IMG/VR virus record: IMGVR_UViG_3300035698_006717
Span: 41,410-105,409 of that record
Direction: 5' to 3' (one strand)
Length of the DNA: 64,000 bases
Origin: a virus
This document shows positions 9,509 through 60,720 of the stretch, one piece after another (position 1 is the stretch's first letter; the number at the start of each line of letters is the position of its first letter). Under the pieces are notes generated by a model. The model was given only the letters and a program-made list of their open reading frames with translations, was not told the DNA's origin and ran no database searches. The translations under genes and the position numbers were made by a program.

Positions 9509-9554
9509 AATCAATACTCTTCAGTTTAAACAGAGGTATACTATAGATATATAG
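9507..9554 (+). promoter_or_regulatory. repeated early promoter, copy 1
   Basis: AAAATCA-ATACTC-17 nt-TATACT. Confidence 0.75.
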
Positions 9555-10561
9555 CGATAGCTAACTGAACTAGAAAGGCTGAACTAATTATGCTTCTCGC
9601 TGACCATGAATTCAATTTTCCAGAGGACAGGATGACAAATGCTATTAGAAGTAGGTTTGCGATAATGCTATCTTTGAATGGTATATGCAAATCTGATGTG
9701 TATGAACTTTCAAGAACCGATGGGAATTTGCTTGCAGTATGGAATAGATTTTATGAAGAATGGAAGAGTGATAAATCAGATTACTGTATGAGAGACTTTG
9801 CATTTATGTATGAGTGCTACAAATATGAGGAAGTAAAATTCACCATTTGGAGAACATATGCTATGTGGAGATTCCTTATGCGTAGCGCAGTTAGGATAAT
9901 GAGGTTTACTATACCAGTAACTCTAGTAATTGGGGCCTATATCTATTTCAACTAAAATTCAGCTATTTGAACGTATCGGCCTAGGCTATATTAAAGGTAA
10001 GGGAGGAAGGTACTATGTTTTCAATTGTAGCAGCTGAACTGAAGGGTGCAGAATAATGAAACTACAAGACTTATTTGAAGAAGCTGAGAAGGCAAGAAAG
10101 AAAACTGAATTGGTAGCAAAGCCACTTTATGAAGATTGGCATAATAAGCTAACAGATGCTATAGAGTATGCTTTCAAAACCAAAAAAGGTCAAGACATAT
10201 GTGGCCTACCCACTACTCCACTAAGGTTCAAATTTAAAGATGGAACAGTATTTGAAGTAAGACCTGCATATATGAATGCGCAAGGAGATTTCAAGAATGG
10301 CGTATTTAAATGGAGTGCAGGCGAAGTTTTCACGCTGAAGAAGATTCCTACACAACCATTTTAACGAGAGGAGTGTGATGTGGTGTAAGATAGTTGTTAA
10401 GTTGAAGGTAAGAGATCATAGTTGGTGGGAGGATATACCTGATGAGATTATGAATAGCGATGAACTATTGTCTAAATTTATTAAGACTGTCACCGACATC
10501 TTCAAACCGATAGATGTTGAGGTATATCCTGAAGAGCAAATTAATATGGAAGGAATTGTAA

Positions 10562-11832: not shown

Positions 11833-11879
11833 AAAGTCATAACTCTTCAGGTAGTTCAACTGTATACTTCCTTATATAA
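11833..11879 (+). promoter_or_regulatory. repeated early promoter, copy 2
   Basis: AAAGTCA-TAACTC-17 nt-TATACT. Confidence 0.75.
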
Positions 11880-12055
11880 GCGACTAACCGAAGGGATTTG
11901 ATGATGGATGATAAGAAGCCGAGACTGGGAGAACAGCAAGTGTTTGGCCCGCAGTTTAGAGTCTATACTATGCGCGGCTGGGTTATTTGTGATACAAAAA
12001 AGGAAGTGGAATCTGAGATGCTTGAGATAGAGTCTATGTTGGAAAAGAAATAGAT

Positions 12056-12101
12056 AAAGTCATTACTCTTCAACTTAAATAGATATATATTACTTTTATA
12101 A
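12056..12101 (+). promoter_or_regulatory. repeated early promoter, copy 3
   Basis: AAAGTCA-TTACTC-17 nt-TATATT. Confidence 0.75.
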
Positions 12102-12232
12102 CTGGAAGGGATCTTATGCTAACTACCTATCACTTAACAGAGGAGTTTGAAAAAAGTCTGAGAAAGTATGAGAGACTCTGCCGAAAACTAAAGTTAATTT
12201 CCCATTAAACGCATTAACAAAAGGAGCCTATC

Positions 12233-12565
12233 ATGGCTGACAAGAAAACTAAGAAGACTGTTGCAAAAGCTAAGACGACTGAAGAAGCACCGCTTGAAGT
12301 TAAAAATGAGAAGAAGCTGGAAGGCTTGACGAATGCTACTGTGGCTACTGGTGTTATTTCCTTTAAAGATGGTTCGGGTTCGGCGGATCTTCTCTCTCTG
12401 ATTGTAAAGCACGGCTTCATCCGTGAGAAGGTTATTGAAGCTGGTGAGAAGCTGAAGCTGGCTGGTAAGGCTTTTGCTAAGTCTGACGTTACTGCTAAGT
12501 ATAACAAGGTTGCTGGGATCATAAAGAATCTCCAGAACGCTGGTTTTAAACTTCCTACTGCGTAG
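12233..12565 (+). CDS. basic, Lys/Ala-rich hypothetical protein (possible nucleic-acid binder)
   Basis: AAGGAG RBS; followed by two hairpins. Confidence 0.7.
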   Translation: MADKKTKKTVAKAKTTEEAPLEVKNEKKLEGLTNATVATGVISFKDGSGSADLLSLIVKHGFIREKVIEAGEKLKLAGKAFAKSDVTAKYNKVAGIIKNLQNAGFKLPTA

Positions 12566-12636
12566 CACTCTGGTCTTTTCCTTTCTTCCAGAGTGCCTGA
12601 GAGGGCAGAGCGTTGGGGTACGTTCTGTCCCTCTCT
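12564..12636 (+). terminator. tandem stem-loops after the 12233-12565 gene
   Basis: GCACTCTGG...CCAGAGTGC and GAGAGGGCAGAGCGT...ACGTTCTGTCCCTCTC. Confidence 0.55.
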
Positions 12637-16813: not shown

Positions 16814-16862
16814 AAAATCATAACTCTTCAGCTAATTCAGATATATACTACTTCTATACCCT
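16814..16862 (+). promoter_or_regulatory. repeated early promoter, copy 4
   Basis: AAAATCA-TAACTC-17 nt-TATACT. Confidence 0.75.
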
Positions 16863-16880
16863 TAAAGAGAGGAGCCTACT

Positions 16881-17270
16881 ATGGCTTGGAATCCTAGTAA
16901 GAAGAAGTGGGAAAGAGATCCAGAACTTCCTGCCCGTAATACCCTTAAGTGGATAGGGCTTACGAGTGAAGAGAAATATGACGTTAATCTTCAGTTGGGT
17001 CATAGCTGGGGATTCCAGAACGTAATACGTGACGTAGAGAACGCCCCGAATGTTGCTATTGAGAAATACTGTGGAGCCTTTCGTATGGGATTTGGGAAGA
17101 AGATAACTATTGATCCTGTTATCCGTAACGCTCTAAGAAAAGAGTTGATGAAGCGTTGCCGTGAAGGAATCTATATCTTTGCCTCTCGTAATGAGAAAAG
17201 AAAGCTGAGACCTGTAGCTCGTATGCATGATGGAGCACCGACTGGTAAACTCGTTAAAGAATCTGCCTGA
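16881..17270 (+). CDS. basic hypothetical early protein
   Basis: GAGGAG RBS after the promoter; hairpin GGGGGATT...AATCCCCC downstream. Confidence 0.7.
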   Translation: MAWNPSKKKWERDPELPARNTLKWIGLTSEEKYDVNLQLGHSWGFQNVIRDVENAPNVAIEKYCGAFRMGFGKKITIDPVIRNALRKELMKRCREGIYIFASRNEKRKLRPVARMHDGAPTGKLVKESA

Positions 17271-18727
17271 TGGCAACAGGGGGGATTGGGTGCTTATTGA
17301 AGCATCGGAATCCCCCCGTATTATTTGAAGGAGGGTTAATGCTATTCTGGTATTTTTGCGCGGCTCGCAACTCTGAACCTTGTTATACTGAATTAGATTC
17401 AGATGATGATCTAGATTTCAATTACAGAACTGGTGGTGATGGATTCTTTACTGTTGATATTTATGTGGGATATTGAAAGGATAGTGCTGTGAAGATTCAA
17501 GATCTAGAGAACGGAATGGTATCCATGACTAGGGTTAGCCCTATTGATGGGAAAGAGAATACCATGATTATTGTATTGGATATGATCAGCTTTATGGCCT
17601 CGCATGCTATATGGGTAGGAGGTACGGATGTGCAAGGTGCTTTCCCTACCCTATCTGCAGATGAGCGTGAATTCATACGTATTGGCATCACACCTGATCA
17701 GTCTAAGGAGATGTATGAAGATGAAGAAGTTTAAAGTTAATGGAGAATGCTTTTGCGAGGGAGGGACTTATGAGGCTCGTTCTCCTATGGAGGCTATGTA
17801 CAAGCATCTCAAAGATGAGAAGAATATAAGTTTGGAGTGTTTCATGGAACCTATATTTAGTGGTAATGTAAAATTAACCACTATAATAGATGGAATAACT
17901 GTTTGCGGCGGTTATGAGATAAGGGAGATGAAGTAATGAAAATAGTATCTCCCAAAACAAAAGTAGAATACATAGTAAGATGGCAGAAATTCGGATGGGT
18001 AGGATCTGCTATCAATGTGTATGTTAAGAAGAAGCTATTTAGTAAGATACCTTACAAGAAGCGTGTATGGCAGATATTTGGAGAAACTTTCTATGATATG
18101 GAAAGGATGTTCCCTGACAAGCTAACAGAACTATTCCATAAAGCCATGAATGAATATGAAGAGTATGTAGAGGCTTGGAATAATTCATTAAACAAAGGAG
18201 ATTGAATGCTGACACCAAAAGACTATCTGACCGCTCTTGATGTTCAAGATGCTTGTAATCTTTCAGGCGTTGTCCTCTCATTTATGGGAGCTTTGGACAA
18301 GATTAGAGAGGAAGTGAAGGATACAGATAAGATCAATAAGCATCCTATATGCGTTCTATATTCTGACAAGATTGCTCACCTAACAGGAACTCAATCTTAT
18401 GCTGTTACTGCTGTAAGTGAAGCATATCAGGCCTGTCACGATAGGAGTCCTGAATGAAAGGATACAAAGTATTTGACTATGTACTACCTGTTTGGTCAAT
18501 CTGTCCTCTAGTAAATGCTGATACATCTTCAACTACTGATGAGGATGATAAGAAGCTTGATAAGTTTCAGGAATGCCTTAATGTCAATATGGAAACTCTG
18601 GAGGCCAAATCTTGGACAATAGATTGGCCAGATTCTGTTGATTCTGCCAAGTACTTTTCTACATATAATGAAGTTGATGGCTATCTTGGAGCAGACGTTG
18701 TTGGTGTAAAGATCTACTTTTTCTATT

Positions 18728-18781
18728 AAAGTCATAACTCGTCAGCTCATTCAAAGGTATATTCTCTTTATACCCGAACCG
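18728..18781 (+). promoter_or_regulatory. repeated early promoter, copy 5
   Basis: AAAGTCA-TAACTC-17 nt-TATATT ... TATACCCGAACCG. Confidence 0.8.
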
Positions 18782-19919
18782 ATAGGAGTCTGATATGACT
18801 GATGGAGAGAAGAAGATTGTTGAGGATTTCGTTCACCATGATATTAGAGATGAGCCTCATGTAATGACAACTATCGGAGATGTGTTTGATGATGTTAATG
18901 TATTTATGAAGAATATTACTGATATTCATAGAGAAGAGAATCGGTTGCTGAAACTTTTGAGAAGCGGAGGGATAGGTGCTTGAATTTTCTGATGGAATGA
19001 GTATTGATACTTCTGGTGATCTGAGAGTAATCTATAAGTCTGATGGATACTATGTTGTAGGTAATGGAATGATGTGCCCTGTGGATAGTCCTGAAGAAGG
19101 CAAAAGTCTGATGGAAGGGATGTCAAAAGATGGGTCAGCCACTAGGTAATGGAGGGTTTATACTTGATAAGCCTCCTGAGATTAACGCCTTCCGTTTGTT
19201 GGCGTTGAAGGGAAGACTAAAGCTTGAAGTGAATACTGGCCTGAAGTTTAGTTCTCGTGGCCCAGCAACTGGTAATATGGTAAGGAAGGAAATTGGTTCA
19301 ACTACTCGTAGTAAGGCAAAGCTGTTGGCTGAATTTGAGACATACTTGAGACAACTAGGTGTATTGAATGATGGGAAGGAGTAACCTATGAAGTTTATGC
19401 TCATACTGATATCTGTTCTATTATTTACCATTAATTCATATTCCGCTGAAATTGAAACATTTGTAACCTTGAGTAATAATCCTGATGCTGGTTGCGTGTT
19501 GATTACCTATTTGGATTATAGGCTATCTGAGGATGAGCCAAATACATATTCTTTGGTAAAGCTGTATGCTGAAGGGTGGAGGTTGGTTCAAGTAATCAGC
19601 ATACCATCTTATAGAAGCAACTTATATGTTTACTACATGGAAAGGATCGGAAAGTGATTTATTATGCAATCCGTACAAAGTACTCTTCAGGAGTCAAAGG
19701 CTCCAGATGTATGGCTAGAGAGGCTGATGGTAGATCAGTATATATACCTTGGGGGTATGAAGTTAATTGTGACAAGAATCATCAGAATGCTGTGAGGAAA
19801 CTTTGTGAGAAGTTAGGATTGTATGGTAAGCTTGCGTCAGGGTCTTTTAAGGGAGAGTTTGTTCACGTCTTTGTAGAAAGATATTACCAATCTAAGTGTA
19901 TTGAATTTGTTAACTAAAG

Positions 19920-19973
19920 AAAGTCATTACTCGTCAGGTGTTTCAGGTATATCTTACCCTTATACCCGAACCG
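19920..19973 (+). promoter_or_regulatory. repeated early promoter, copy 6
   Basis: AAAGTCA-TTACTC-17 nt-TATCTT ... TATACCCGAACCG. Confidence 0.8.
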
Positions 19974-19986
19974 AGGAGAGCTGATT

Positions 19987-20313
19987 ATGGAACTGCCGAA
20001 GAATGTTTGCGCATCGCTGGCTGATAAGAAGCTAATAGTTGATGAGACTAAGAAACTTCTTGCTTATGCGCATGTTGCTGATGATAACCTTACTTGGCGC
20101 TTCCTAGCGGAGATGTTGGAGAATTCCTGCCGAGCTAATGCTGTTATTCAACTAGATTATTCCGAAGATGGTAGAGAAGGAAATAAGACTTGGTATATTA
20201 TAGAAGGGATGGGGATGGGTGAGAAGTTCCTCTATATTGACTGTTCTAAGGCTGATACTCCTAATTGGGAATATTCTTGGAGTGCTATCTATGATTTGAG
20301 AGATGAGAACTGA
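19987..20313 (+). CDS. acidic hypothetical early protein
   Basis: GAGGAG RBS after the promoter. Confidence 0.7.
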   Translation: MELPKNVCASLADKKLIVDETKKLLAYAHVADDNLTWRFLAEMLENSCRANAVIQLDYSEDGREGNKTWYIIEGMGMGEKFLYIDCSKADTPNWEYSWSAIYDLRDEN

Positions 20314-21376
20314 TTATGATCTCAAATTGGAAGTGGAATTTAGTAATGAGATGTATGGGTACGTGGATGGATTGGTATAGAATAGGGTATGGTGAATGGT
20401 TGGGGGGAGAGCTGGTTACTCTTCCCCCGTTTTTACATGAAAGTATTTATCATGGATGTTATGACTGCTCCCTTGGAAGAACTACAAGCGTATGTTGACT
20501 TCTTACATGAGGAGTGGGTAGATGATCTATTCTATTCAATATATGATGTAGTTGCTGAAGAACGCAACCGTGTTGAATCTATCATAGAGTTGAGATCTAA
20601 CCCCTGAAAGGATTTATCATGGAATTCAGAGGATTAACCAAACAGATGATCATCCCTATCGCTAGGCGGGAGGCTAATTTGTGTAACGCTTGGTGGATAC
20701 TAAGAAACGCTCAGAAAGCTAATAATCCTGAAATTACTGCTCAAATGAAAGCTATGGCTAAAGACTTCATAGCTAGAAAGGACACGTGAATGGCTCTGTC
20801 AAAGATGGATAAGAAGGTACTTGCTGATATGTATAATTCTCTAAGAGCAACTATAATGGCTTGCGCTTCAGAAAGTATTGCTTGTGTCAGGTAAGCTGAT
20901 GCTTGTGATAGTGTTGTACATGATAACATTAAGATATGGATGGACAAAGATGACTAAAATTCAGATAGTCCCAAGAATAGGTGATATTGTTATAGTCAAT
21001 TACAAATATATGGTAGCTGATCAAGAGTCTAGTCAGTTTGTTGATTATATATTCAAGCACGTTGCTTTTGCTGGCGCTATTTCTTCATGGAGGTACTGCT
21101 CTACTAAGCCAAGCCTAAGTAGTGTTGTTGTTACATTTGGTACTGTTCAATTTAATTTCTCCGTCATCGAGCTTATTTGGACAGGACTCAATATAGGATC
21201 TGAAAATCCTCATTATGTTGAAGTAAACTACCTATAATCTTCAAACTCCTAGGAAGCCCGTAGAGCTTAGACAAGATCTAACCCTATCCTAGTACGCCTA
21301 AACCCCTTTCAAGACCGTAGCGAGCCGCCTAGGAGCTTGTAATAGGCTTGTAGGTATAGAACCGAACCCGTAAAAG

Positions 21377-21430
21377 AAAGACATTACTATTCAGTCAGTT
21401 CAGATATACCTTATACCTATACCCGAACCG
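21377..21430 (+). promoter_or_regulatory. repeated early promoter, copy 7
   Basis: AAAGACA-TTACTA-17 nt-TACCTT ... TATACCCGAACCG. Confidence 0.75.
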
Positions 21431-22134
21431 ATAGGAGATGAAAGATGGCTAGGATTTTTTGGGACGCCATAGTAGGTGAAGTATTCTTACCCTTGTGGTA
21501 TCGGATATTTTGTAGAACAGTTTGTAAGATTTTTAGTCACAAACCTATGCGTAGCTTCCCTCCTGATTCAAATAGTAGTAATTGTATTGATACCTATTGT
21601 GAACGATGTGGCAAGTATTTGAACTAACCCCTAGGAGAAGATGAAATGAATAAGCAGGAAGTGAAAGATAAGCTGTTGTACTTTGTTCGTCAGTACGGAA
21701 GACGTATTTCCTTGCCAGGTATATATAGTGATGCCTCTGGTATAGGTTCTTTGAGGACTGAAGGTTGTTCTTGTTGTGCTACTTCCTTTAGGTATTCAAA
21801 ACACGATTGTGATGAAAATGACGCTGCAGATGAAATAATTCAATCCTTTACCATGGATGAACAAATAGAAATTGTTAAGGAGAGCTTGAAAGCAACTATC
21901 AAAGAGTACGGCCTTACCCCTTCTGACTTGGAGTAATACCCTAATAACCCTTGAAAGGTGTTAAAATGATTAGATACACTATAAAGCAAGTAGTTATGTA
22001 GCTGTAACAAACCTTATTTATGAACAGCTACGGTGTACACCAGCTGATCTAACAAAAATTCAAAAGAAATTGCTTATAGCTTGTAATAACATGCTAGAAC
22101 TACTCAGAACAATAAAAAAGGAGGTAGAATCAAA

Positions 22135-23127
22135 ATGAGCAAAAATGATAATGAAGAGTGGACAACAGAAAAAGCTCTCAAGGCTTTTGCTAGCCATAGG
22201 TTTAGAGGCATTAATGTAAAAACAAAAGAAAGTATGAGGAGCATTTTGGATAAACTCAATCTAACAAAAGATCAATTGAAGAAACTCAACCTACTAGAAA
22301 AATCAATTCTCAAATGGGAGCAAAATCAACTTATAGCTTCAGAGATGTCAACATTCACAGATCCAGAGAACTACCCACTCCTAAAGGGACAATTCATTAT
22401 AGAAGCAGATACTTGCCCTCTATGCGTAGAATACAATATTGGCTTAACAAATAATAAGATATGCTTAGAGTGCCCTATCTATCAGATGAACAGTAACCAT
22501 AGAGTGTGTAGAGGTACACCTTATATGACGGTAAGCAGATTCATGCTATCTCCAATTCCCAATTGGGAAGGTGTACATTCCGCTTCAAAAGCAGAGGTAG
22601 TCTTTCTTAATCGAGTTAAGAAAGAACTCATACTATCCTATGAATCACCTCCCCACGTAAGGAATAGCAAGAATACCCCTATTACGTTATATAACAGTAA
22701 TTGCGTACCAGTGTTGTCCTTAGATTGTGATGAAGAGAATGAATCTATGGTAGAAGTAAGAGATGTTAAGGATGGTATGATAATAGGTGAGTTAGAGGTT
22801 GATATGTGTTCTACTGAATACTTAGATTGCATAGACAATATACTACCCTCAGACTCAGAGTTTGCACAGATTAAGGATTGGGACAAAGCAATTGAGAAGG
22901 AAAAGAAGCAATTATTGACTTTCTCTCTAATAGCCCCAAACCTTTGGACTGACACCGATACTGAAAGGTTCTCTATCTATGCTTTTGAGAAGACTAATGG
23001 TAAGACAGGAGTCAAGTATATGGCTTATAATATATTTGATAATGAAGAGCAGAAGGTGATAGGTAAGGACTCTAAGTTGTATACATTTACTGCTGCTGCT
23101 GAGTATGTTAATAACAAGAAGTGGTAG
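22135..23127 (+). CDS. hypothetical protein with Cys-rich domain
   Basis: AGGAGG RBS; CPLC...CLECPI...C motif. Confidence 0.7.
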   Translation: MSKNDNEEWTTEKALKAFASHRFRGINVKTKESMRSILDKLNLTKDQLKKLNLLEKSILKWEQNQLIASEMSTFTDPENYPLLKGQFIIEADTCPLCVEYNIGLTNNKICLECPIYQMNSNHRVCRGTPYMTVSRFMLSPIPNWEGVHSASKAEVVFLNRVKKELILSYESPPHVRNSKNTPITLYNSNCVPVLSLDCDEENESMVEVRDVKDGMIIGELEVDMCSTEYLDCIDNILPSDSEFAQIKDWDKAIEKEKKQLLTFSLIAPNLWTDTDTERFSIYAFEKTNGKTGVKYMAYNIFDNEEQKVIGKDSKLYTFTAAAEYVNNKKW

Positions 23128-23229
23128 ATGTACTACTATCTTGCTACTATGTGGTATACTAGGGAGTAGTGAACATCACTTAGGCATTTTGACTACTGTG
23201 TGGTATGATACTATTATACTATTATGTGA

Positions 23230-23495
23230 TTTATGATTGATTTAATACATGCTTATGCCACATCATGATCAGTCATGATCAAAGCATGCTTTCCACCGCA
23301 TATTCACGCCATTCATGATATCTACCTGATATATTCAGACTAATCAAAATTTCAGCTTCATGATATCTACAGTGTTATTTGCAAATAATCATTAAAATCA
23401 CATCATTGAGAAAATTCATTGGTTAGTCATAGTCATTGAATAGCAAAAATCATTGAAGATGTACATTCAGTGATTAGCAAAAGTCAATGACCTTG
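23230..23495. repeat. non-coding cluster of TCATGA / TCA(A/T)TG(A/G) motifs
   Basis: TCATGATC x2, TTCATGATATCTAC x2 (23312, 23357), repeated TCATTGA/TCATTGG/TCAGTGA/GTCAATGAC. Confidence 0.75.
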
Positions 23496-23598
23496 CCAAC
23501 TCAAGGATTATCTTTCTAAAGTCATAATATATCAAGACTGAATAGTATACCTTTCTAATAGGCGGGAATCCCCTAACCCCTACCCTAGGAGGAAGAAA

Positions 23599-23961
23599 AT
23601 GAACCATCTGTTGTTAGAAAAAGCTATTAAGGATTTGGCGGTAAAGCCTCTAGGTAAGTTCTCTGAAACTGAGGAAATGTTTAAGCGCTCCGGCTCTATA
23701 GGAGCTATTGCACTTGCACCCTACCTAAAAGGGGATAATGAATACTATGCTGACGAGGGAGACGAAGGCTTCTTGATGGAATGGGTTGAAATGTTTGATA
23801 AGCTAGAACCTCTAGCGGGTGCGGTTGAATTTACGGATACTGTTTCTGGTTGTGACGTAAATGTTAAGTGTTTCTTTGGAACTATACTTGTTAAGTGGAT
23901 AAATGAGGTAGGGGGAGTTTCCCTATCTGTTTTTGATATAGAAGCGTATATGGTTTTGTAG
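23599..23961 (+). CDS. acidic early protein, paralog A
   Basis: Aligns end to end with 24596-24952 (LG.FS, LKGD.EY, SGC.V.VKCF.G.ILV.W.N..G..S.S.FDI). Confidence 0.8.
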   Translation: MNHLLLEKAIKDLAVKPLGKFSETEEMFKRSGSIGAIALAPYLKGDNEYYADEGDEGFLMEWVEMFDKLEPLAGAVEFTDTVSGCDVNVKCFFGTILVKWINEVGGVSLSVFDIEAYMVL

Positions 23962-23967
23962 AAAAAG

Positions 23968-24022
23968 AAAGACATTACTCGTCAGCTAGTTCGGGTATAC
24001 CTTACCTCTATACCCGTAACCG
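23968..24022 (+). promoter_or_regulatory. repeated early promoter, copy 9 (more divergent copies at 23518 and ~24529)
   Basis: AAAGACA-TTACTC-17 nt-TACCTT ... TATACCCGTAACCG. Confidence 0.75.
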
Positions 24023-24035
24023 TAGGAGGAAGAAG

Positions 24036-24371
24036 ATGAAAGGTTCTACTGTTTATGAAAGCCTAGAAGATCTAGTGAAGGTACTAGGTGATAGTAAAGA
24101 TTGCAAATACTTGTTAGAAGATATAAAGGAACGGCTTGAAAAGGCTTTGGGAGAAAGAAAACCTTATAGCGTATCTTGGGTAAGTACTGAAACTGATTAT
24201 GCTACTGCTACCGCTATGAGCTTGTTAGTCGATAGCAGAGAGGGTGATACTTGGGTAAGCGAAGAAGGTGAAGAATTCTATAAGCTGATTAATGCGGTTG
24301 ATGAAACTCTAATCGTTATAGAGATGAATATTCCTGGTATGAGTGATTACCTTCTAGTGACGTATATTTAA
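24036..24371 (+). CDS. acidic hypothetical early protein
   Basis: AGGAGG RBS; about 23 D/E vs 11 K/R; no Gln or His. Confidence 0.75.
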   Translation: MKGSTVYESLEDLVKVLGDSKDCKYLLEDIKERLEKALGERKPYSVSWVSTETDYATATAMSLLVDSREGDTWVSEEGEEFYKLINAVDETLIVIEMNIPGMSDYLLVTYI

Positions 24372-24384
24372 AGGAGATCTGATC

Positions 24385-24405
24385 AGGGGGCTTGCCCCCT
24401 TTCCC
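24385..24405 (+). terminator. putative intrinsic terminator
   Basis: AGGGGG-CTTG-CCCCCT hairpin followed by a short pyrimidine run. Confidence 0.5.
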
Positions 24406-24413
24406 ATTAACCA

Positions 24414-24516
24414 GCAAAAGTCAATGACCTGAGGAAAATTCAATGGCACAAATTCAACCCAGAAATTCAATGATCAAAACTCAATGATCAAAACTCAATC
24501 GTCAAAACTCAATGAC
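24414..24516. repeat. 14-bp tandem-like repeats AAAA(C/T)TCAATGA(T/C)C
   Basis: AAAAGTCAATGAC, AAATTCAATGG, AAATTCAATGATC, AAAACTCAATGATC, AAAACTCAATCGTC, AAAACTCAATGAC. Confidence 0.85.
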
Positions 24517-24595
24517 GAGTATTATATAGACAGGGCTAATCAAGCTTGATTAGAGTATATTACCCTTATACCCTAACCCCTCTAGGAGGCAGAAG

Positions 24596-24952
24596 ATGAG
24601 ACAGCACGCGTTGGCTAGTGAGATTAAGAAAGCGGCGGGAGGTAAAGCACTAGGTGAGTTCTCCCTAGCGAACCATATGTTTGATACTTCGGACGTAGTA
24701 GTAGCAAAGGCTTTGACCCCCTTCCTTAAGGGAGATGACGAGTATTTCGTTAGCGACGATGAGGAGGCTTGGAAAGATGATTACCTGATTAGCTTTATTG
24801 ATATAATCCCTACGGCGGGAGAGGTACGGTTTGACGATACTGACTCTGGTTGCTCCGTACACGTTAAGTGCTTCTACGGACTAATCCTAGTACGTTGGAC
24901 TAATAGCGCAGGGGCTGATTCTATCTCTGCTTTTGATATACCTGAGTTATAG
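24596..24952 (+). CDS. acidic early protein, paralog B
   Basis: Paralog of 23599-23961; AGGAGG RBS. Confidence 0.8.
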   Translation: MRQHALASEIKKAAGGKALGEFSLANHMFDTSDVVVAKALTPFLKGDDEYFVSDDEEAWKDDYLISFIDIIPTAGEVRFDDTDSGCSVHVKCFYGLILVRWTNSAGADSISAFDIPEL

Positions 24953-24967
24953 AAAGGATCTGAATTT

Positions 24968-25000
24968 GGCTCTCCTACCCTAAGGAGAGCCTTCATTTTA
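24968..25000 (+). terminator. intrinsic terminator
   Basis: GGCTCTCCT-loop-AGGAGAGCC then TTCATTTT. Confidence 0.65.
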
Positions 25001-25009
25001 CATACCATA

Positions 25010-25450
25010 CGTCATTGGTTTGTACTGTATATGTAAGGACATATGGTAAGCCAATGAGTTGTTCTGTATATGTAATGACATATGTTAGAGCAGGTGATAG
25101 AGCATATGGTAAACCAATGACTATGTAATGTATGTAATAGCATATGGTAAGACAAGTGATAGGACATATGTAAAGAGCAAATGGTATGTGTGTGATACCA
25201 ATGTACTGTACTGTAAATGTAAGGACATATGGTAAACCAATGACCTGCTATATGTGTGTGTAATAGCATATGGTAGGACAAATGTAAGTTCAAATGATAT
25301 GCTATACATTGAGCTGTTATATGTAAATGTAATAGCAAATGTAAGGACATATGGTAAACCAATGACTATGTAATGGAATGTTAAACAAATTGTTAAACAA
25401 ATGTTGTGAAATGTTAAACCAGTGAAATAAATGTAAAATGTTTACCAAGT
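25010..25450. repeat. degenerate array of CANNTG/CANTG motifs, often 12 bp apart
   Basis: e.g. CATATG-ttagag-CAGGTG-atagag-CATATG-gtaaac-CAATG; 30-bp AAATGTAAGGACATATGGTAAACCAATGAC at 25215 and 25337. Confidence 0.9.
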
Positions 25451-26107
25451 TGATATCTACCATATACCATTGGCTAGTTGATTTTATTTGAAACTGATAT
25501 CCTTGTTGCTGCTGTGATTAGCTTGATTTCACAATACACTGATTTCTTTTGGCTTTTCCCCGTTTTGCCATGATTTGGTAATTCAATGACTTTCTCGGAT
25601 TTCCGAAAAAAAGCGGAAAAATCCGAATTTACCCTAAATCGGGCGAATTACCCGAAGTCGGTATAAATACCCGAAAGCGGGTAGAAGGTACTATTTAAGG
25701 GGCTTAAATAGGGGCCGTTTAAGGGTTAAATACGTTTAGAGCCTAGGAAGGTTATTTAAGCGGATTAAGGGAAAACTAATTAACCGTATTAGGTAAATCT
25801 TCTAAGTCCTTTAAAATAGGGTAGTTACGGAGGGCGGGCTTTTAGGCGGATTCTATTTAAACGGTTAAAAAGATAGTTTAAGGTTTTTAAACTAGATAGA
25901 GATTCTAGTTTAAATCGCTGAAGGCGAATTAAATAAAACGTCTTTTTTAGTACTATTAAGACGTTTTTTAAGGCGACTGCTCGCGAGCAAATCTACTTAA
26001 GATATTAAGTTTTCCCCGATAGGGGCTTTAATCGAGTATATTTACTATAACGCCGCTACCCGCTACGGGCTACGGCGATAATCTATTACCCTTATAGGGG
26101 GTTTCTT

Positions 26108-26377
26108 ATGGTCTCGAATTCACTTACTCTAATAGCTTCGGTGACGAACGATCTACCTACTATATATAGGGTCGCTACGGTTAACCCCTTCGCCGCCCTA
26201 CTACCTATCGCCGCCATAGTCGCCGCCGTATACCTTATAGCTTTAACGGTCTACGTGGCGAACGACTACGCCGTTAATACTAATTTACTAAGAATAGAAA
26301 GAGAGGAGCCTATAACCTTAAGAAAGAGCTTTATAGTCGAATACAATAACGGAACTAATAAAACCGTAAACGCTTAG
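26108..26377 (+). CDS. small membrane protein
   Basis: Hydrophobic segment FAALLPIAAIVAAVYLIALTVYV; AGGGGG RBS. Confidence 0.65.
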   Translation: MVSNSLTLIASVTNDLPTIYRVATVNPFAALLPIAAIVAAVYLIALTVYVANDYAVNTNLLRIEREEPITLRKSFIVEYNNGTNKTVNA

Positions 26378-26432
26378 TCTATTACTTCGAATTCACCAAA
26401 TTTTTAAACCGTAAAAGAAAAGAGTTACTACT

Positions 26433-26960
26433 ATGACTACGAAAAAGAATACTACCGCCGCTCCCGTTTCTAAGATCGTTCGCCACGCCGCCGCCGCTCC
26501 CGTAGAGACTCCCGCCGCCGCTACCGTAGAGAAGGTTTCGCTACTATCGGAAAAGGATTTTATTTCTTACGCCGAAAAGAGCGGGACTCCCGCCCTAAAA
26601 TCTTTCGGAAACGTAGGGAGTCGAGTATACGCGAATCCTACCTTTTCGGGAACTACGGCCTTTATTATAGCGGCTCTTTCTACCGTCGATACCAAACGTA
26701 CTAGTTTTACGGTCGCCGATTTCGATTCGGGTATACGGTCGATGAAAACGAAGGAGAACTGGGAACGACTCGACGCTATTTTTAATACGTTCCGTTCCCG
26801 TTTCGCGAGTAACCGTAAAGGCGAAAAACCTTCCCTCGCGAGCAAGTATAAAAGTCCCGTAAAATCTTTACGGACTAGCGGAGTATATAAAGCGTTCGAC
26901 GTTTCCGCTATCGGGACTCCCGAACTAAGAAAGTCCTTCGGATTCGCGGCGGGGAAATAG
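26433..26960 (+). CDS. basic hypothetical protein with Ala/Pro-rich N-terminus (possible DNA binder)
   Basis: 175-aa ORF followed by a strong terminator; no Gln or Cys. Confidence 0.75.
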   Translation: MTTKKNTTAAPVSKIVRHAAAAPVETPAAATVEKVSLLSEKDFISYAEKSGTPALKSFGNVGSRVYANPTFSGTTAFIIAALSTVDTKRTSFTVADFDSGIRSMKTKENWERLDAIFNTFRSRFASNRKGEKPSLASKYKSPVKSLRTSGVYKAFDVSAIGTPELRKSFGFAAGK

Positions 26961-26989
26961 ATCGTTCGCCACCAATAGGCGGATAATAT

Positions 26990-27018
26990 AGGGTAGTCTT
27001 CGGACTACCCTTTTTTTA
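26990..27018 (+). terminator. rho-independent terminator with UUCG tetraloop
   Basis: AGGGTAGTC-TTCG-GACTACCCT-TTTTTT. Confidence 0.92.
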
Positions 27019-27190
27019 TACCTTCCCCGCTCCCTTCCTTCCTTCGTTCGTTCGCCAGACTCCCTCCCTTCCTATAATACCCTAAATCGCCGCTACGGGA
27101 CTTTCGCCCTCATAGGTATAGCTAGGATAGGGTATATCTTCCCCGCCTTATACGGGCCTTCTACGGGCCTTATATAAGCTATTTAGAATA

Positions 27191-27300
27191 TACCTTAAAT
27201 CGGGTAGAATACCCGAATTTATATAGTCGGGCTTTTTACCCGAAGTCGGGTAGAATACCTTATCGGGTAAAATACCCGAAGTAGGGTAATATACCCTAAT
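27191..27300. repeat. cluster of TACCCGA/TCGGGTA motifs in both orientations (matching cluster at 25621-25690)
   Basis: TCGGGTAGAATACCCGA, TACCCGAAGTCGGGTAGAATACC, TCGGGTAAAATACCCGAA. Confidence 0.85.
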
Positions 27301-27580
27301 AATTTAAGCGCTTAAGGGGTAGGGCGTATGCGAACGATTTTATTTTCTAGGTAGCCCTACTTTGGCACCCAGCACACACCGTGAACATTTTTGCCAAGAT
27401 TACCATGCTCAGAATATTTCAGGCAATACTACAAATGAAAAAGCCCACATACCGAAGCATGCAGGCTGAAAAATATTTACAGAAATTTTTTCTGCTGAAT
27501 TTACAATATATACTTCTTGGAATCATCCTTATAGAAAATGGATATAGTTACATCTAGATAGAATTTCATCGCCCAACTCC

Positions 27581-30453: not shown

Positions 30454-31536
30454 TTACGAAGTCGCCCTTGGCGATTTGGGCCGAACGACGTGAGCCGTAA
30501 CATTTCTCTTTTGTTCCGCCTTATCAGGATAAGTCTTTTGGTTCTTCACAATAGATTTGGTTTGTACCCGTCTATTCTTTACTAAAATTCTAAAATACGG
30601 GCACTTTCCATTGATTGATAGATCCTTTTCATCATTCCCTTTTCTGAACTTAACTATTTCAAATTGCTTTGGATTGAACTTATGGAGAAATGTTATTGGC
30701 ACACCTATAAACCCTTTGTAGTCTGATGGTATATCCTTTGTCTTATTAACATTTATACCATCATAGTTGTCATACTTGGGATATTGAGCTTCATTTCCGT
30801 AGTATCTTTTGGTGAGTGGAATATCTTCGTGCCGTTTAAACGTATCTAAGTTAGTCAACCATAGACAATTGTTTGGAGAAACGATTCTGTTCCCAAAACT
30901 ATCTATCCGAGCTTCTGTTCCATAAAGTTCATAGTGTTCGGGAACAATAAAACCAGAGACCCCTCTACCAATGTTTATTCCTAACCATGCTTTGTTTTCT
31001 TTTATAAGCTTGAAATCTTCCTTATAAGTTATTGCATTGATATTCCCAATTATCAAGAACTTTTTATGGTACTTGACCAATTGAGCTACGTATTCTCTGA
31101 ATAATGAAAATGGAGGGTTAGTAACTACAATGTCAGACTGTTTCAGTAGTTCAATGCTTTCTGAACAACGGAAGTCACCATCCCCAGCAAAGTGAATAAT
31201 GTCGGTTGAGCTTGGTTTGCTTCTTTCACCCTCCGTACCAGTATATTCAAAGTAGAAACCATTTTCATCTTCCGCGGTGTTAAACAAATCTCTTACTTGT
31301 TCCCTGTAACAAGCCGCTATCAATTTCTTGAGACCTAATTCCTCAAAGTTTGAAGCAAAGTAACTATAAAAGTTACTAATTTGAGGGTCATCGCAATTGC
31401 AAAAGACCACCTTGTCTTTAAAGTGGCTCTTATAATGCTTCAATTCACTTTCTATATCTGAAAGTTGCGTGTAGAACTCATCGCTTTTTGATTTCTTAGC
31501 TTTTTGTAATAATCTGTTTGTTGCTTTCCTTGTCAT
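30454..31536 (-). CDS. adenine-specific DNA methyltransferase, M.EcoRI family
   Basis: DEFYT, CNCDDP..SNF, GDGDFRC.E, VVTNPPFSLFREY, YPKYDNYD.INV, GVPITFL.K.NP.QFEI. Confidence 0.9.
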   Translation of the reverse strand: MTRKATNRLLQKAKKSKSDEFYTQLSDIESELKHYKSHFKDKVVFCNCDDPQISNFYSYFASNFEELGLKKLIAACYREQVRDLFNTAEDENGFYFEYTGTEGERSKPSSTDIIHFAGDGDFRCSESIELLKQSDIVVTNPPFSLFREYVAQLVKYHKKFLIIGNINAITYKEDFKLIKENKAWLGINIGRGVSGFIVPEHYELYGTEARIDSFGNRIVSPNNCLWLTNLDTFKRHEDIPLTKRYYGNEAQYPKYDNYDGINVNKTKDIPSDYKGFIGVPITFLHKFNPKQFEIVKFRKGNDEKDLSINGKCPYFRILVKNRRVQTKSIVKNQKTYPDKAEQKRNVTAHVVRPKSPRATS

Positions 31537-40955: not shown

Positions 40956-41736
40956 CTTCGCCCCATATCATATCTGTTAATTTTTTCACATCTGGATCAA
41001 ATACTATACTTCTCCAAGTTTCATCATTTTCGTATAATTTCCATCTATTCAGCACATCCATTTCCTGAGCATTACCATCAAATTGTTTACCATTAAAGCT
41101 ACTACCTATTCCATAATTAGGAATTTTATTCAAACCTCTATCAGTATGCTTTAGGCCAAGCATATTGGATATTGCTTTTCTGGATGATTCACTACGGAAC
41201 CAATTATTAAAGTCTATGCAAACAGAATACTCAGGCAAACTATCCTCATAACCTAAATAGCTGTTATAATATTGCTTCAGCAGTCTTTTATATTTACCAT
41301 TCACAATCTGACTGTGTACATAGTTCAGCCTACTAGCTGTCATATTATATGGATCACGGATAGGAAGAACAAAGCATTTTATCTTACTCTTACCATAATT
41401 ATGGTTTGCTATCCTATCCATATTATCCTTAGTAATTTCCACTTCCTCATATCTAGTTATGAGGCATTTCCTATCAGCATATGGATTAGTATCCAAACTA
41501 AGCTGAGGCATCTTATAGTTGTATATACTATGCTCTTGTTTCTTCCTGAATATCTCAGGCTTAAGCGCAAATGTCTTAGGATCAGTATTTAGAAGATGAA
41601 CCTCTCCATCTCCAAAATGATTGATAACCCAATTCATTATGGCATTACTACCGCTACGCTTCATACATAGGAAAATGAATTCATATTCATTCTCAATCTG
41701 AGATAAACGATCTCTGTTAAATGTCACATGTGACAT
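40933..41736 (-). CDS. sulfotransferase-like P-loop protein
   Basis: MKRSGSNAI.NW, IRDPYN.TASR, GSSF...VLNRW. Confidence 0.7.
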   Translation of the reverse strand: MSHVTFNRDRLSQIENEYEFIFLCMKRSGSNAIMNWVINHFGDGEVHLLNTDPKTFALKPEIFRKKQEHSIYNYKMPQLSLDTNPYADRKCLITRYEEVEITKDNMDRIANHNYGKSKIKCFVLPIRDPYNMTASRLNYVHSQIVNGKYKRLLKQYYNSYLGYEDSLPEYSVCIDFNNWFRSESSRKAISNMLGLKHTDRGLNKIPNYGIGSSFNGKQFDGNAQEMDVLNRWKLYENDETWRSIVFDPDVKKLTDMIWGEGEILRTN

Positions 41737-57277: not shown

Positions 57278-58941
57278 CATACCGTACCATTAGCGGAGCA
57301 AGGGCATCCAACTATGGATTTAAGGAAATAGATGGAGCGTTAATATTCTCACACTATCACCTATATAGCAAGGAAAATATTTGGAACAAATTTATTGCAG
57401 CTAATTTTAGGGATGTTGCTGATTGTCATTATCTTGCTTATAAGAATGACTGCGAATTATTGAGAACACGAAAGCGTAAGCTGAGTTCATTTATTAAGAG
57501 TATTTGGGATCAAGATGAAGATGTAGCTTTGATAATGATAAAAGCTATTGTGGCTATGAAAGATGAACCAGAACCTGAAATTATTGATAAGATACTTAGA
57601 GAAATTTTGCCTGGTATTGGTTTTTCAAAGATAAGGAAACCAGATGGTAAGTATTATTGGAAGATAAATGAAAGAAAAAAATTTGATGCAGGTATAGGGA
57701 AGGTACTTGTTTTAACGTATATTAATAACAGTTTTAATAAAGATAATACTTGGAAGTATATTAAGAAAAATTGCTACCTTAAAGATGGAACTTGGCACTA
57801 CAAGAGTAATATTGCTAAAAAGAGAATTGAAAGCATATTAAGTAATTACATCAAAAATGGAGGAATACTTGTGGAACACGTAAATATGGAATTTAACGCT
57901 TTTGTGCCGATGACTGTCGTGAGCAAAGATGCTTTGGGTAGAGATAGATTTTTTGGTAATGAAACTGACGATGAGAAGCATCTATTTGTTTCAGGTGCAG
58001 CTTCTACTACAGGAGTAGATTTTGATACAGAAAGAGTATCAAAGAATTTTATTAAGAAAATGAAAAAACAAGCAGTTGGCCTTCCTCTTAAAGTAGGTAG
58101 TCATTTCAACGCCGATCTAGATAGCACCGTTGGGGTAGTTGTAGATAAGGGCGGTAATGATGATACTTTTGAAGTAGAGGGAAGGCTCCAAGCTTTTGAT
58201 CATAACCCTAATGTTCTCAAGATTGCTCAGAAGATGGATGATGGTATTGCTTTTGGGTTCTCTATTTTCGGGAGAGTGACCAAGACCTTTCGGGAGATGG
58301 ACAAGAAATTGGGTAGGGAAGTAGTTGTTCTGGATGATGGAGATTTGTCTCACATCCTTATAACTGACCAACCTTGCAATAAAGAAACTTTTGCAGAAGG
58401 TATTGTTAAGTCTCTTGTTGATAAATCAGAAGGCGCAGGAAACGGAATCAACGGTTCCAAACCCCGCCAAGAAACTGAGTACAAACACTCCTCTGCCATC
58501 CTAAAGCAAGAGCCTGAGATTACAGCTGCTACAGAATTACCTGATCAGGCTTATCCTATTAACTTTGCTACCAATAAAGTACACAAGGAATATCCCCACC
58601 ACTATGTTAGTGATGGCATCTTATATTTACACAAAGCGTCTCTGGTAAGTTCTTTCAATACTGCAAAAGAGTCTAAGGCTCCTAGCATTGTTGTGAACCA
58701 CTTACTTAACCACTTACAGATTATCGGCCTCCAAAAAGAGGTTGATGATTTTGCTAATTTAAAGAATAGCATGGAAGAACTGGCAAGCGTGAAGGAAAAA
58801 ATTGATGCTTATCTTACAAAACTTGCAGACGACTGCAAAGCTAAAACAATTGGTGTAGAATCTAAAGAAGAAAAAATGAAGATCATTAATGAACTAATAT
58901 TGCAAGTGGCACCGAAAGTTACAGATCTTATTAATAGCTAA
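57250..58941 (+). CDS. prohead protease (HK97-type) with in-frame N-terminal extension
   Basis: VSGAAST..VD.D.E.V, H, FGFSIFG, I.ITD.PCN..TF; internal GGAGG-GTG start at 57871. Confidence 0.8.
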   Translation: MEQHTEETVTYRTISGARASNYGFKEIDGALIFSHYHLYSKENIWNKFIAANFRDVADCHYLAYKNDCELLRTRKRKLSSFIKSIWDQDEDVALIMIKAIVAMKDEPEPEIIDKILREILPGIGFSKIRKPDGKYYWKINERKKFDAGIGKVLVLTYINNSFNKDNTWKYIKKNCYLKDGTWHYKSNIAKKRIESILSNYIKNGGILVEHVNMEFNAFVPMTVVSKDALGRDRFFGNETDDEKHLFVSGAASTTGVDFDTERVSKNFIKKMKKQAVGLPLKVGSHFNADLDSTVGVVVDKGGNDDTFEVEGRLQAFDHNPNVLKIAQKMDDGIAFGFSIFGRVTKTFREMDKKLGREVVVLDDGDLSHILITDQPCNKETFAEGIVKSLVDKSEGAGNGINGSKPRQETEYKHSSAILKQEPEITAATELPDQAYPINFATNKVHKEYPHHYVSDGILYLHKASLVSSFNTAKESKAPSIVVNHLLNHLQIIGLQKEVDDFANLKNSMEELASVKEKIDAYLTKLADDCKAKTIGVESKEEKMKIINELILQVAPKVTDLINS

Positions 58942-58952
58942 GGAATTCCAAA

Positions 58953-59630
58953 ATGGATTTCAGTAATGAAGAAATTGCAAAAATGATGGAAGCTGGCGTT
59001 GCCAAGATTCTTGGTACCTCCGCACCTGAAGAGAAGAAGCCTGAAGAGAACCTTGCCGTAAAGGGCCTTGAGGCTAAAGTTGATGCTGTGATGGATTTCA
59101 TTTCTAAGAATGTTAAGGTTGAGAAACCTAAGACTGTTGAAGAGCAGTTTGAGGAAATGAAGAAGTCTATTCTTGATGCCGTTAAGGACACCAAGAAAGA
59201 AGATGTTGCTGATGAGGACAAGCCTCTTGAGAACATTACCGCTAAGTCTCTTAAGGAGATGGTTACTGGCGTTATCAAAGACGCTGTTGACACTAAGAAG
59301 ATTGTTAAATCAGATTCGCCCAAGGGCCAGTCTGCTGAAGAAGATGCAATTGATGAATTTATCGGTCTTGTTGCTAAGTCTGCTGGTGTAGAGATGGAAG
59401 CTGACGAGGTAGCTGATGAAGATGATGCTGATGATGCTGGTGAGAAGCCTGTTAAGAAGGTTGCAAAAGAGGCTAAGGATACAGTAGTCCAAACTGTAGA
59501 GCAGTTTGACGAACAGGGTACTGAAATTCCTATGGCCAAGCGTCAGAAGATGCAGGAACTTGATAATTACATTGGTGACAAACTGACTTTTGAATTTCAG
59601 AAGCGCGGTATTGTCCCAGGTGATAACTAG
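58953..59630 (+). CDS. capsid scaffold protein (putative)
   Basis: Acidic, helical, low-aromatic protein between protease and MCP. Confidence 0.65.
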   Translation: MDFSNEEIAKMMEAGVAKILGTSAPEEKKPEENLAVKGLEAKVDAVMDFISKNVKVEKPKTVEEQFEEMKKSILDAVKDTKKEDVADEDKPLENITAKSLKEMVTGVIKDAVDTKKIVKSDSPKGQSAEEDAIDEFIGLVAKSAGVEMEADEVADEDDADDAGEKPVKKVAKEAKDTVVQTVEQFDEQGTEIPMAKRQKMQELDNYIGDKLTFEFQKRGIVPGDN

Positions 59631-59712
59631 AAATACTGATGTTAATTGAATAGTATAGTTTAACACTCACCCACACGTAATACGATAACTTACAGTATTT
59701 TTGGAGCAAACT

Positions 59713-60720
59713 ATGAAAGTTAAGAATCTGAAGCAGCTTTCGCAGGCTCTCAAGAAGGCAGTGACAATTGGTAATCTACCGTTTGGCCGTGCGTCATCTG
59801 GTACAATTGCTCAGCCGTTCCTTCCTGATCCTCTTGCTGCTACATTTATTGATATTGTTACGGAGTATAATAATTTCCGTAAGGTTTTCAAGGTGCAGCC
59901 CATGAACAGTCGTGTTCGCACGATTCCTAAGCTGCTTACTGGTACTAAAGTCTATTACCAGCCTTCTGAAGCAACAGAAGGTCGGGAGACTTCCTTCAGC
60001 GCAAGTAACATTGAGCTGCTGGCTAAGAAGTTGTTTGCTTGGATAGAGATATCTGAGGAAACTTTTGAAGATGGTGTTCTTGACATGCGCTCAATGATCC
60101 GTATGCTTTTTGCACGCGGTATGGGCGAAGGTGAAGAAAAAGCATTCCTTACTGGTGACGTTGACCATGGTCAGACCACCGCTACGGAAGCTGATGGAAC
60201 AGATGATTATAATGGTGTATGGTTCAACCGTGATGCACGGCTGGCCTTTGATGGTATTCTCACTATCGGAATTGAATCTGGTGTGAACTATGATGTCAAC
60301 GGTAACTGCACTGTCGATGTATTCCGTCAAGGAATCTATCGGCTTGGTCGTTTTGGCCGTCAGCAGCCTAAGTTGATAACTTTCCTCAATCCGTTTTCGG
60401 CCAATCAGATGCTTGCAGATGATGACCTACGGACTGTTGACAAGTATGGCGCAAAAGCAACTATTCTCACAGGTGAGATTGGTGAGCTTTTTAATAAGTG
60501 GAAGATCATCCAGACAGACTACATCCCAGAAGGATACGGCGTATCCACTCATCGGGATAATGTCATTATTGGTGATCGTCGGCGTGTGAAGTTTGCGGAA
60601 GATGCTATCATCAAGAATGATAGTGTTGTGTGGGCAATCTCTGAGCGCGTTGCTATGGAAGTTGAATATGATGATGCAGTTCTGGTCTTTAACGGCCTGA
60701 CAACTGGTTCAGCTTCCTAA
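59713..60720 (+). CDS. major capsid protein (HK97 fold)
   Basis: LP..LA..FID, SE, I.L.AKK......ISEE..ED, EEKAFL.GD; GGAG RBS before ATG 59713. Confidence 0.92.
   Translation: MKVKNLKQLSQALKKAVTIGNLPFGRASSGTIAQPFLPDPLAATFIDIVTEYNNFRKVFKVQPMNSRVRTIPKLLTGTKVYYQPSEATEGRETSFSASNIELLAKKLFAWIEISEETFEDGVLDMRSMIRMLFARGMGEGEEKAFLTGDVDHGQTTATEADGTDDYNGVWFNRDARLAFDGILTIGIESGVNYDVNGNCTVDVFRQGIYRLGRFGRQQPKLITFLNPFSANQMLADDDLRTVDKYGAKATILTGEIGELFNKWKIIQTDYIPEGYGVSTHRDNVIIGDRRRVKFAEDAIIKNDSVVWAISERVAMEVEYDDAVLVFNGLTTGSAS

Follow-up and report, generated by a model that had tools for sequence, protein, structure and literature searches.

Messages that lack ACA, or are otherwise poor in the motif, escape mRNA interferases of the MazF type. 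Phage DNA, too, has been shaped in comparable ways: the EcoP15I sites of T7 all lie in one orientation, and the first-step-transfer DNA of T5 has no EcoRI sites. Enzymes of the DarT type modify single-stranded DNA in short motifs. The CmdT enzyme of the CmdTAC system attaches ADP-ribose to adenine where this occurs as GA in single-stranded RNA (PMC11618068), and in the Pbunavirus phages F8 and 14-1 a hypermodified thymine with sugar-like adducts is reported within a TG motif (PMC12191111). The subject of this report is a different bias—the sense-strand scarcity of one dinucleotide, CA, in the genes that come first behind a family of promoter-like motifs—in the uncultured phage represented by virus record IMGVR_UViG_3300035698_006717 (105,409 bp; 139 open reading frames, ORFs). 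Positions 41,410–105,409 of the record are a 64-kb stretch that we call the window; positions are those of the window unless marked as genome or locus positions. Restriction-site avoidance is familiar, but we know of no earlier description of a purge of one dinucleotide from one strand, in units of 400 nt that start at a promoter.

Five genes, 16881, 19987, 23599, 24036 and 24596, carry on their sense strands 6 CA in 390 nt, 3 in 327, 3 in 363, 2 in 336 and 7 in 357, respectively, where base composition predicts 13–21 each. ACA occurs 0, 0, 0, 0 and 2 times, and TG is present in normal numbers (23–35 each). The effect was first noticed in a reading of the sequence alone, and the hand counts in that sequence-only reading, like its remarks that TG stays abundant and that four of the genes have no ACA, prove exact. 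Among the 139 ORFs these five have the lowest observed-to-expected (o/e) ratios for coding-strand CA (0.15–0.40, against a median of 1.07) after the two genes, 26108 and 26433, of a neighboring island (25585–27330) that is nearly free of CA and TG on both strands.

Two null models were applied. The first retains each protein and redraws its codons from genome usage; the second shuffles synonymous codons inside each gene. Under the first, 15.8, 12.1, 10.7, 10.5 and 16.2 CA are expected in the five genes, in the order given, and the observed numbers fall below these at p ≤ 0.0005 in every case. Under the second, C|A junctions between codons number 2 in the five genes pooled where ~19 are expected, a deficit that lies beyond the reach of codon preference, and that codon preference therefore cannot produce. 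Loss of CA can be seen, in fact, at three levels: His and Gln are lowered (1.9% of the flagged proteins versus 4.6% genome-wide; p = 3.5e-4), NCA codons are avoided, and so are the C|A junctions. The purge is present in all three codon phases, and it spares nothing by context, the ratios to genome density being 0.08 for ACA, 0.11 for TCA, 0.08 for CAA, 0.23 for CAG, 0.26 for CCA and 0.28 for CAT. CA is the sole strongly deviant dinucleotide, with CG raised in compensation; GA is not depleted (ratio 1.18), and Met, Trp and Cys are at normal levels. Short genes, and a coding strand in which C is the rarest base, would favor an explanation by chance, base skew, amino-acid content or translational codon preference. 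But with all nulls that control for these factors rejected, the C|A junctions so few, and the five lowest-CA ORFs among the 137 outside the island all lying downstream of the promoter motif, such an explanation is scarcely credible. The deficit survives protein-preserving resampling and stands after control for amino-acid content and for the G>C skew of the coding strand; chance, base composition and protein content are not its cause.

What the deficit follows is a promoter-like motif. Ten copies are present between 9.5 and 24.6 kb, all on the + strand, and the core recurs, at 26035, before island gene 26108. The motif comprises an upstream element (CAtTACTCgTCAG), a -10-like GTATAy, and TATACCC, followed by a CA-free leader and a strong Shine–Dalgarno sequence, and each flagged gene is the first ORF downstream of a copy. 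All ten copies head a CA-poor zone of ~400 nt. When they are aligned, CA occurs 5.5–6.1 times per 100 nt upstream, 2.0, 2.7, 1.2 and 2.5 times over the first 400 nt, ~4.2 times as far as 800 nt from the motif, and at normal frequency thereafter; relative to the genome, density is 1.09 upstream and 1.08 beyond 800 nt, and the CA-poor part of the meta-profile begins at the -10-like element and ends near +400 nt. Within the zones, the five flagged units have 0.23 of the genome's CA density; the remaining five have 0.57, with 60 CA versus 106 expected (p~1e-6).

These other five vary in strength. The weakest is the promoter copy with its first 400 nt at 9537–9937 (+), where there are 16 CA versus ~21 expected. 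Two copies, at 11863 and 12084, head moderately CA-poor zones (11863–12612, +); gene 12233–12565 has a CA z-score of -2.4 and a double hairpin downstream. The copy ahead of three small genes that open an operon (18758–19384, +) is followed by 2, 3, 0, 4 and 0 CA per 100 nt and then by normal values, and the copy with genes 21445 and 21646 (21405–21936, +) shows a mild deficit.

Ten promoter-anchored zones mean that the signal belongs to the promoter family: the CA deficit is a property of that family, and neither a gradient of distance from the island nor an effect confined to five genes. The sequence-only reading had described the effect as gene-specific, and this is right insofar as neighboring genes have z-scores near 0 and gene 22135 is enriched in CA (61 versus 48 expected from its protein, z +2.5), but too narrow insofar as every promoter copy heads a CA-poor zone. 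Strand-specific depletion in promoter-proximal genes, its central claim, is real, and the ten-copy profile ties it to the promoters. A dependence on distance from 27.3 kb, which it had also envisaged, is absent: 16881 and 24596 are equally depleted, and between them lies the CA-rich 22135.

Our best account, which we hold tentatively, is that natural selection has stripped the sense strand of CA over the ~400 nt that are transcribed first from one phage-specific promoter family. The purge is one-stranded, starts at the promoter, and runs through all codon phases, and the agent therefore reads a single strand, not duplex DNA. Its most likely target would be mRNA. A CA-directed endoribonuclease or RNA-modifying enzyme, belonging either to a host defense or to the phage's own shut-off of its host, would inactivate ordinary messages, and the first-cistron messages, which probably encode counter-defense or take-over proteins, would have been recoded to escape it and stay translatable. 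The neighboring island would apply the same CA rule to both strands. An enzyme of this sort is plausible in kind because CmdT reads GA on single-stranded RNA. That RNA is what is read, rather than one strand of DNA, we infer, and an agent that reads CA at the RNA level is the explanation we favor overall, with modest confidence. A MazF-type enzyme, one of the original suggestions, would lead one to expect depletion of its recognition motif (ACA or UACAU) alone and fits poorly, TCA, CAA, CCA and CAG being depleted as well as ACA; a ribonuclease that reads CA more broadly is possible.

The single strand might be DNA, instead. Just behind a very active promoter, transcription bubbles or R-loops would leave the non-template strand unpaired, and an enzyme specific for single-stranded DNA—a nuclease, an ADP-ribosyltransferase or a deaminase—could strike CA there. 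As this requires, it is the non-template strand that is depleted, from the promoter onward and with a fade after ~400–500 nt, and enzymes of the DarT type set a precedent for modification of single-stranded DNA in short motifs. CmdT, too, weakly modifies single-stranded DNA (PMC11618068). The data are the same as those for reading of mRNA, however, with nothing to separate the two, and the island flanks would need another cause. We know of no enzyme that has CA specificity, and consider this version improbable.

Several things weigh against selection on messages. Reading of RNA, of the non-template strand or of the template strand would leave identical footprints, and all of the cassettes are on the + strand, such that sense-strand and + strand effects are inseparable inside this genome. 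The starts, ends and timing (‘early’) of transcription are predictions from motifs. The phage yielded no candidate for a CA-specific RNase or RNA-modifying enzyme. CA returns right after the stop codon of 16881, ahead of its terminator hairpin, and unit 12233 has a leader that is not poor in CA. The both-strand purge of CA and TG in the island, finally, takes in its flanks, ~350 and 190 bp of repeat-filled and apparently untranscribed DNA, and is easier to explain at the level of DNA.

An explanation that would take in the flanks starts from the other strand. Where the sense strand has no CA, the template strand has no TG, and such a template might be free of a bulky DNA mark in TG context—a hypermodified thymine made by the phage, for example—or of TG-directed nicks, and hence be readable by the first polymerase to arrive, with the island clean on both strands. 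The geometry of a DNA mark fits, the purge of the non-coding flanks agrees with a DNA-level rule, and the hypermodified thymine of F8 and 14-1 puts a TG-context mark on record (PMC12191111). The phage has ThyX, an adjoining P-loop kinase-like gene, and a large sugar-activation/glycosyltransferase operon, and the phage matches of its ThyX, which are many, come mostly from the Pbunavirus group. The similarity of these is ~32%, however, and generic. In the ThyX region (genome 30643–33344), a weak thymidylate-kinase-like P-loop protein and a Rossmann-fold oxidoreductase stand on either side, and neither neighbor (P-loop kinase-like, FAD-oxidoreductase) has informative phage matches. No 5-hydroxymethyldeoxyuridine (5-hmdU) DNA kinase, pyrophosphorylase-type transferase or dUMP hydroxymethylase was recognized among the phage proteins, many of whose ORFs are without assignment. 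The whole genome strongly avoids the TG-containing words CATG and CANTG, as if nucleases could still read them, and the conserved promoter element itself has three CA. Phage 14-1, in which the mark is on record, has neither a CA/TG-free island nor a sense-CA-depleted gene, its lowest o/e being 0.63. We regard a template mark as unlikely, yet as a serious rival to the mRNA account. DNA glycosylation by way of a GpC-specific methylase, TET and glycosyltransferase (bioRxiv 2023.12.21.572611) was set aside as a model, its context being GpC and the sole DNA methylase found here being EcoRI-like. Pseudomonas phage 14-1 has a strongly strand-asymmetric, unannotated gap of 1 kb (14-1 positions 58934–59896; L131:9934-10896), the left half of which is TG-rich and CA-poor, and the right half CA-rich and TG-poor.

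The flagged units are short, self-contained cassettes—a promoter core (GTATAy..TATACCC), a strong Shine–Dalgarno sequence, one small ORFan, and a hairpin—and nearly the whole of each unit therefore lies inside the CA-poor zone. Every one closes with a hairpin or with the next promoter. Four of the cassette proteins are acidic; Pfam and PHROGs returned no match to any of them, and no RNase family. Gene 16881 (16881–17270; 129 aa, basic, no family) is preceded at 16819–16880 by the motif (CATAACTCTTCAG..GATATATAC..TATACCC) and a CA-free leader with its Shine–Dalgarno sequence, and is followed directly by a strong hairpin (17279–17317; -26.7 kcal/mol, z -3.8), all on the + strand, as are the features that follow. 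The ESM Atlas model of its protein bears only a weak resemblance to winged-helix regulators (TM 0.33–0.41, low confidence); for protein 22135, the ESM Atlas gave nothing. Gene 19987 (19987–20313; 108 aa, acidic, no family) has an exact consensus copy of the motif, and leader, at 19925–19986, and its unit ends in a terminator-like hairpin with a T-run (20401–20434), one CA being present from stop codon to hairpin. Gene 23599 (23599–23961; 120 aa, acidic) is headed by a variant core and leader (23526–23598), with an array rich in TCA(A/T)TGA upstream. Gene 24036 (24036–24371; 111 aa, acidic), which has the lowest CA outside the island and encodes a protein without His or Gln, follows another exact consensus copy and leader (23973–24035), and is itself followed by a short G+C hairpin and TTT (24385–24400), a weak candidate for a terminator. 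Gene 24596 (24596–24952; 118 aa) stands behind a promoter core (AGTATATTACCCTTATACCC) and leader at 24554–24595, and its unit ends in a terminator-like hairpin with a T-run (24968–24998). A homologue search with protein 24596 found only the protein itself.

Within the genome, 23599 and 24596 are paralogues (44% identity). Gene 24596 is also TG-poor (z -2.8) and CG-rich (z +3.8), and is intermediate towards the state of the island; at six positions it has CG where 23599 has TG, and the reverse never occurs. The suggestion that the cassettes obey a relaxed form of the island rule is a reasonable one in this light, the more so as island gene 26108 has the same promoter core.

A relative exists against which these features can be compared. 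Its 2.85-kb metagenome contig contains, in this order, two cassettes that differ from those here but have a promoter of like kind, a CA/TG-rich array, and a CA/TG-poor, CG-rich island. The island proteins are 25–32% identical to those of this phage, and composition has been kept at that level of identity; the rule, therefore, outlives the sequence. One of the relative's cassettes has 7 CA versus 13.6 expected (p = 0.004), and the other 8 versus 11.5 (p~0.1), so the one-strand deficit is partly replicated there, in weaker form. A second variant of the large island protein from a relative (L122:1-110) has an N-terminal tandem DTVASTLP repeat, and the underlying DNA repeat, of 33 nt, includes CA. 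Contigs from four salt-lake runs are either identical to this phage or too diverged for a comparison of polymorphisms.

Might the bias be neutral, instead, and the cassettes former island sequence in decay? If C-to-T change were strand-biased, TG might be restored fast and CA only slowly. The raised CG of the cassettes, the intermediate state of 24596, and the six TG-to-CG differences between the paralogues, in one direction only, could all be read in this way. A relic should not, though, take the form of ten separate promoter-anchored zones over unrelated ORFs, nor leave TG, Met, Trp and Cys fully normal with His and Gln low, nor recur as the same bias over different genes in the relative. 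Differences from related strains, furthermore, are symmetric (A>G 28 versus G>A 27; C>T 17 versus T>C 22). We think decay of this kind very unlikely.

The island differs from the remaining genome in CG content, as well (o/e 1.95 versus 0.39), and is flanked by clusters of TACCCGAAGTCGGGTA repeats. In its right part, at 27116–27150, lies a near-palindromic pair of promoter-core-like sequences (GGTATAGCTAGGATAGGGTATATC; both strands), which suggests outward and inward transcription starts, one of them antisense and facing gene 26433. Genes run on the + strand up to ~25 kb and on the - strand from 52 kb down to 27.5 kb, and transcription therefore converges on the 1.75-kb island; the genes that flank it are transcribed towards it, not away. 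In one salt-lake run the island contig (24481–27564) has a depth of 9.2, whereas contigs on its left have 4.4–6.6, increasing in the direction of the island; a terminal repeat, or a gradient of copy number near an origin, could be the reason.

Arrays dense in CA and TG lie directly upstream of two cassettes and of the island. One precedes the 23599 cassette (23230–23495; 6 CATG, 7 CANTG), tandem AAACTCAATGA units precede the 24596 cassette (24414–24516; 5 CANTG), and a CATATG/CANTG array adjoins the island (25010–25590; 15 CATATG, 11 CANTG). Across the genome the same words are avoided, CATG at 0.49 and all four CANTG at 0.24–0.50 of Markov expectation, and TGNCA is not; the avoidance is common to the relative (loci L001, L005, L006) and absent from the control, Pbunavirus 14-1. 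These arrays, and this avoidance, speak for a protein or nuclease that recognizes palindromic CA-Nn-TG in duplex DNA, all sites for which would be abolished by removal of CA from one strand. The sequence-only reading called this the cheapest way to abolish such sites, but the early region shows otherwise: between 9000 and 23100, CANTG has been shed (4 versus 35 expected) with CA near normal, and a wholesale purge of CA is unnecessary. The CAs left in the five genes meet TG at n = 2–8 at chance frequency, and two CATG remain. Nor does recognition of duplex sites predict the start at the promoter, the fade after 400 nt, or the constancy of strand. We give it a low probability.

Other palindromes are avoided, too. 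CCGG occurs once in 105 kb, at 23690 inside gene 23599, where 65 sites would be expected, and is missing from the CG-rich island (0 versus 11.7 expected); the relative does not avoid it. TCGA is found at 15 sites outside the island versus ~52 expected, and at 10 inside it versus 11.3. With TCGA at expectation there and CCGG absent, the island is exempt from the TCGA rule, not from the CCGG rule. Avoidance of palindromes (CCGG, TCGA, CATG, CANTG) forms a separate layer, the cassette signal being one-stranded, local, and at the level of the dinucleotide.

The record encodes a portal, tail proteins, Pol III alpha, DnaB- and DnaG-like proteins, ThyX, SbcCD and a UvsX-like recombinase; it also has a sugar/glycosyltransferase operon of 16 kb and a gene for an adenine methylase. 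The methylase gene, an orphan of EcoRI type (30454–31536, -; Pfam E 1e-128), lies among small minus-strand genes and presumably serves anti-restriction. The portal has only ~23% identity to those of SPO1-like phages. DNA of this phage is present in salt-lake metagenomes, and no RNA data set is listed among the sequencing runs that contain it. Searched at the nucleotide level, GenBank phages gave no match to the early region, and a search of IMG/VR for relatives of the island or early proteins gave none. Portal relatives are found in IMG/VR at 77%, on contigs that end at the island edge or are without the early region. The conserved island-edge word is absent from IMG/VR, the 14-base leader motif produced only single chance matches, and GTDB genomes searched with the portal yielded nothing.

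The purge is strong enough to have reshaped proteins, at the cost of His and Gln, and it constrains the mechanism of the island: a reader of CA must be able to act on a single strand, with an effect tied to transcription. A hitherto undescribed activity that reads bare CA on single-stranded nucleic acid might be widespread among phage hosts or phages, as an immune or host-shut-off enzyme that targets RNA or single-stranded DNA; this would explain both the one-strand cassettes and the CA/TG-free islands, and we consider it possible, though doubtful.

How, then, does this locus compare with what has been described? Escape from MazF-type enzymes resembles it in that the gene-specific absence of a motif from the sense strand would spare the message, and four of the five flagged genes have no ACA; it differs in that CA is purged here in every context, TCA, CCA, CAA and CAG included, and from a promoter onward. 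From CmdTAC it is clear that a bare dinucleotide on mRNA can be enough for an antiviral enzyme to recognize its target and stop translation, but CmdT is specific for GA, not CA, and GA is not depleted in the cassettes. The thymine mark of F8 and 14-1 (PMC12191111) sits on the very step that is complementary to the CA purged here, whereas the enzymes of its pathway were not found in this phage, and 14-1 has no CA-free genes or islands. T7 and T5 resemble the cassettes in that avoidance is confined to part of the DNA, or to one strand, and is linked with early events. What is avoided there, however, are sites of 5–6 bp, over whole genomes or terminal regions, whereas here it is a dinucleotide, over units of 400 nt that start at a promoter.

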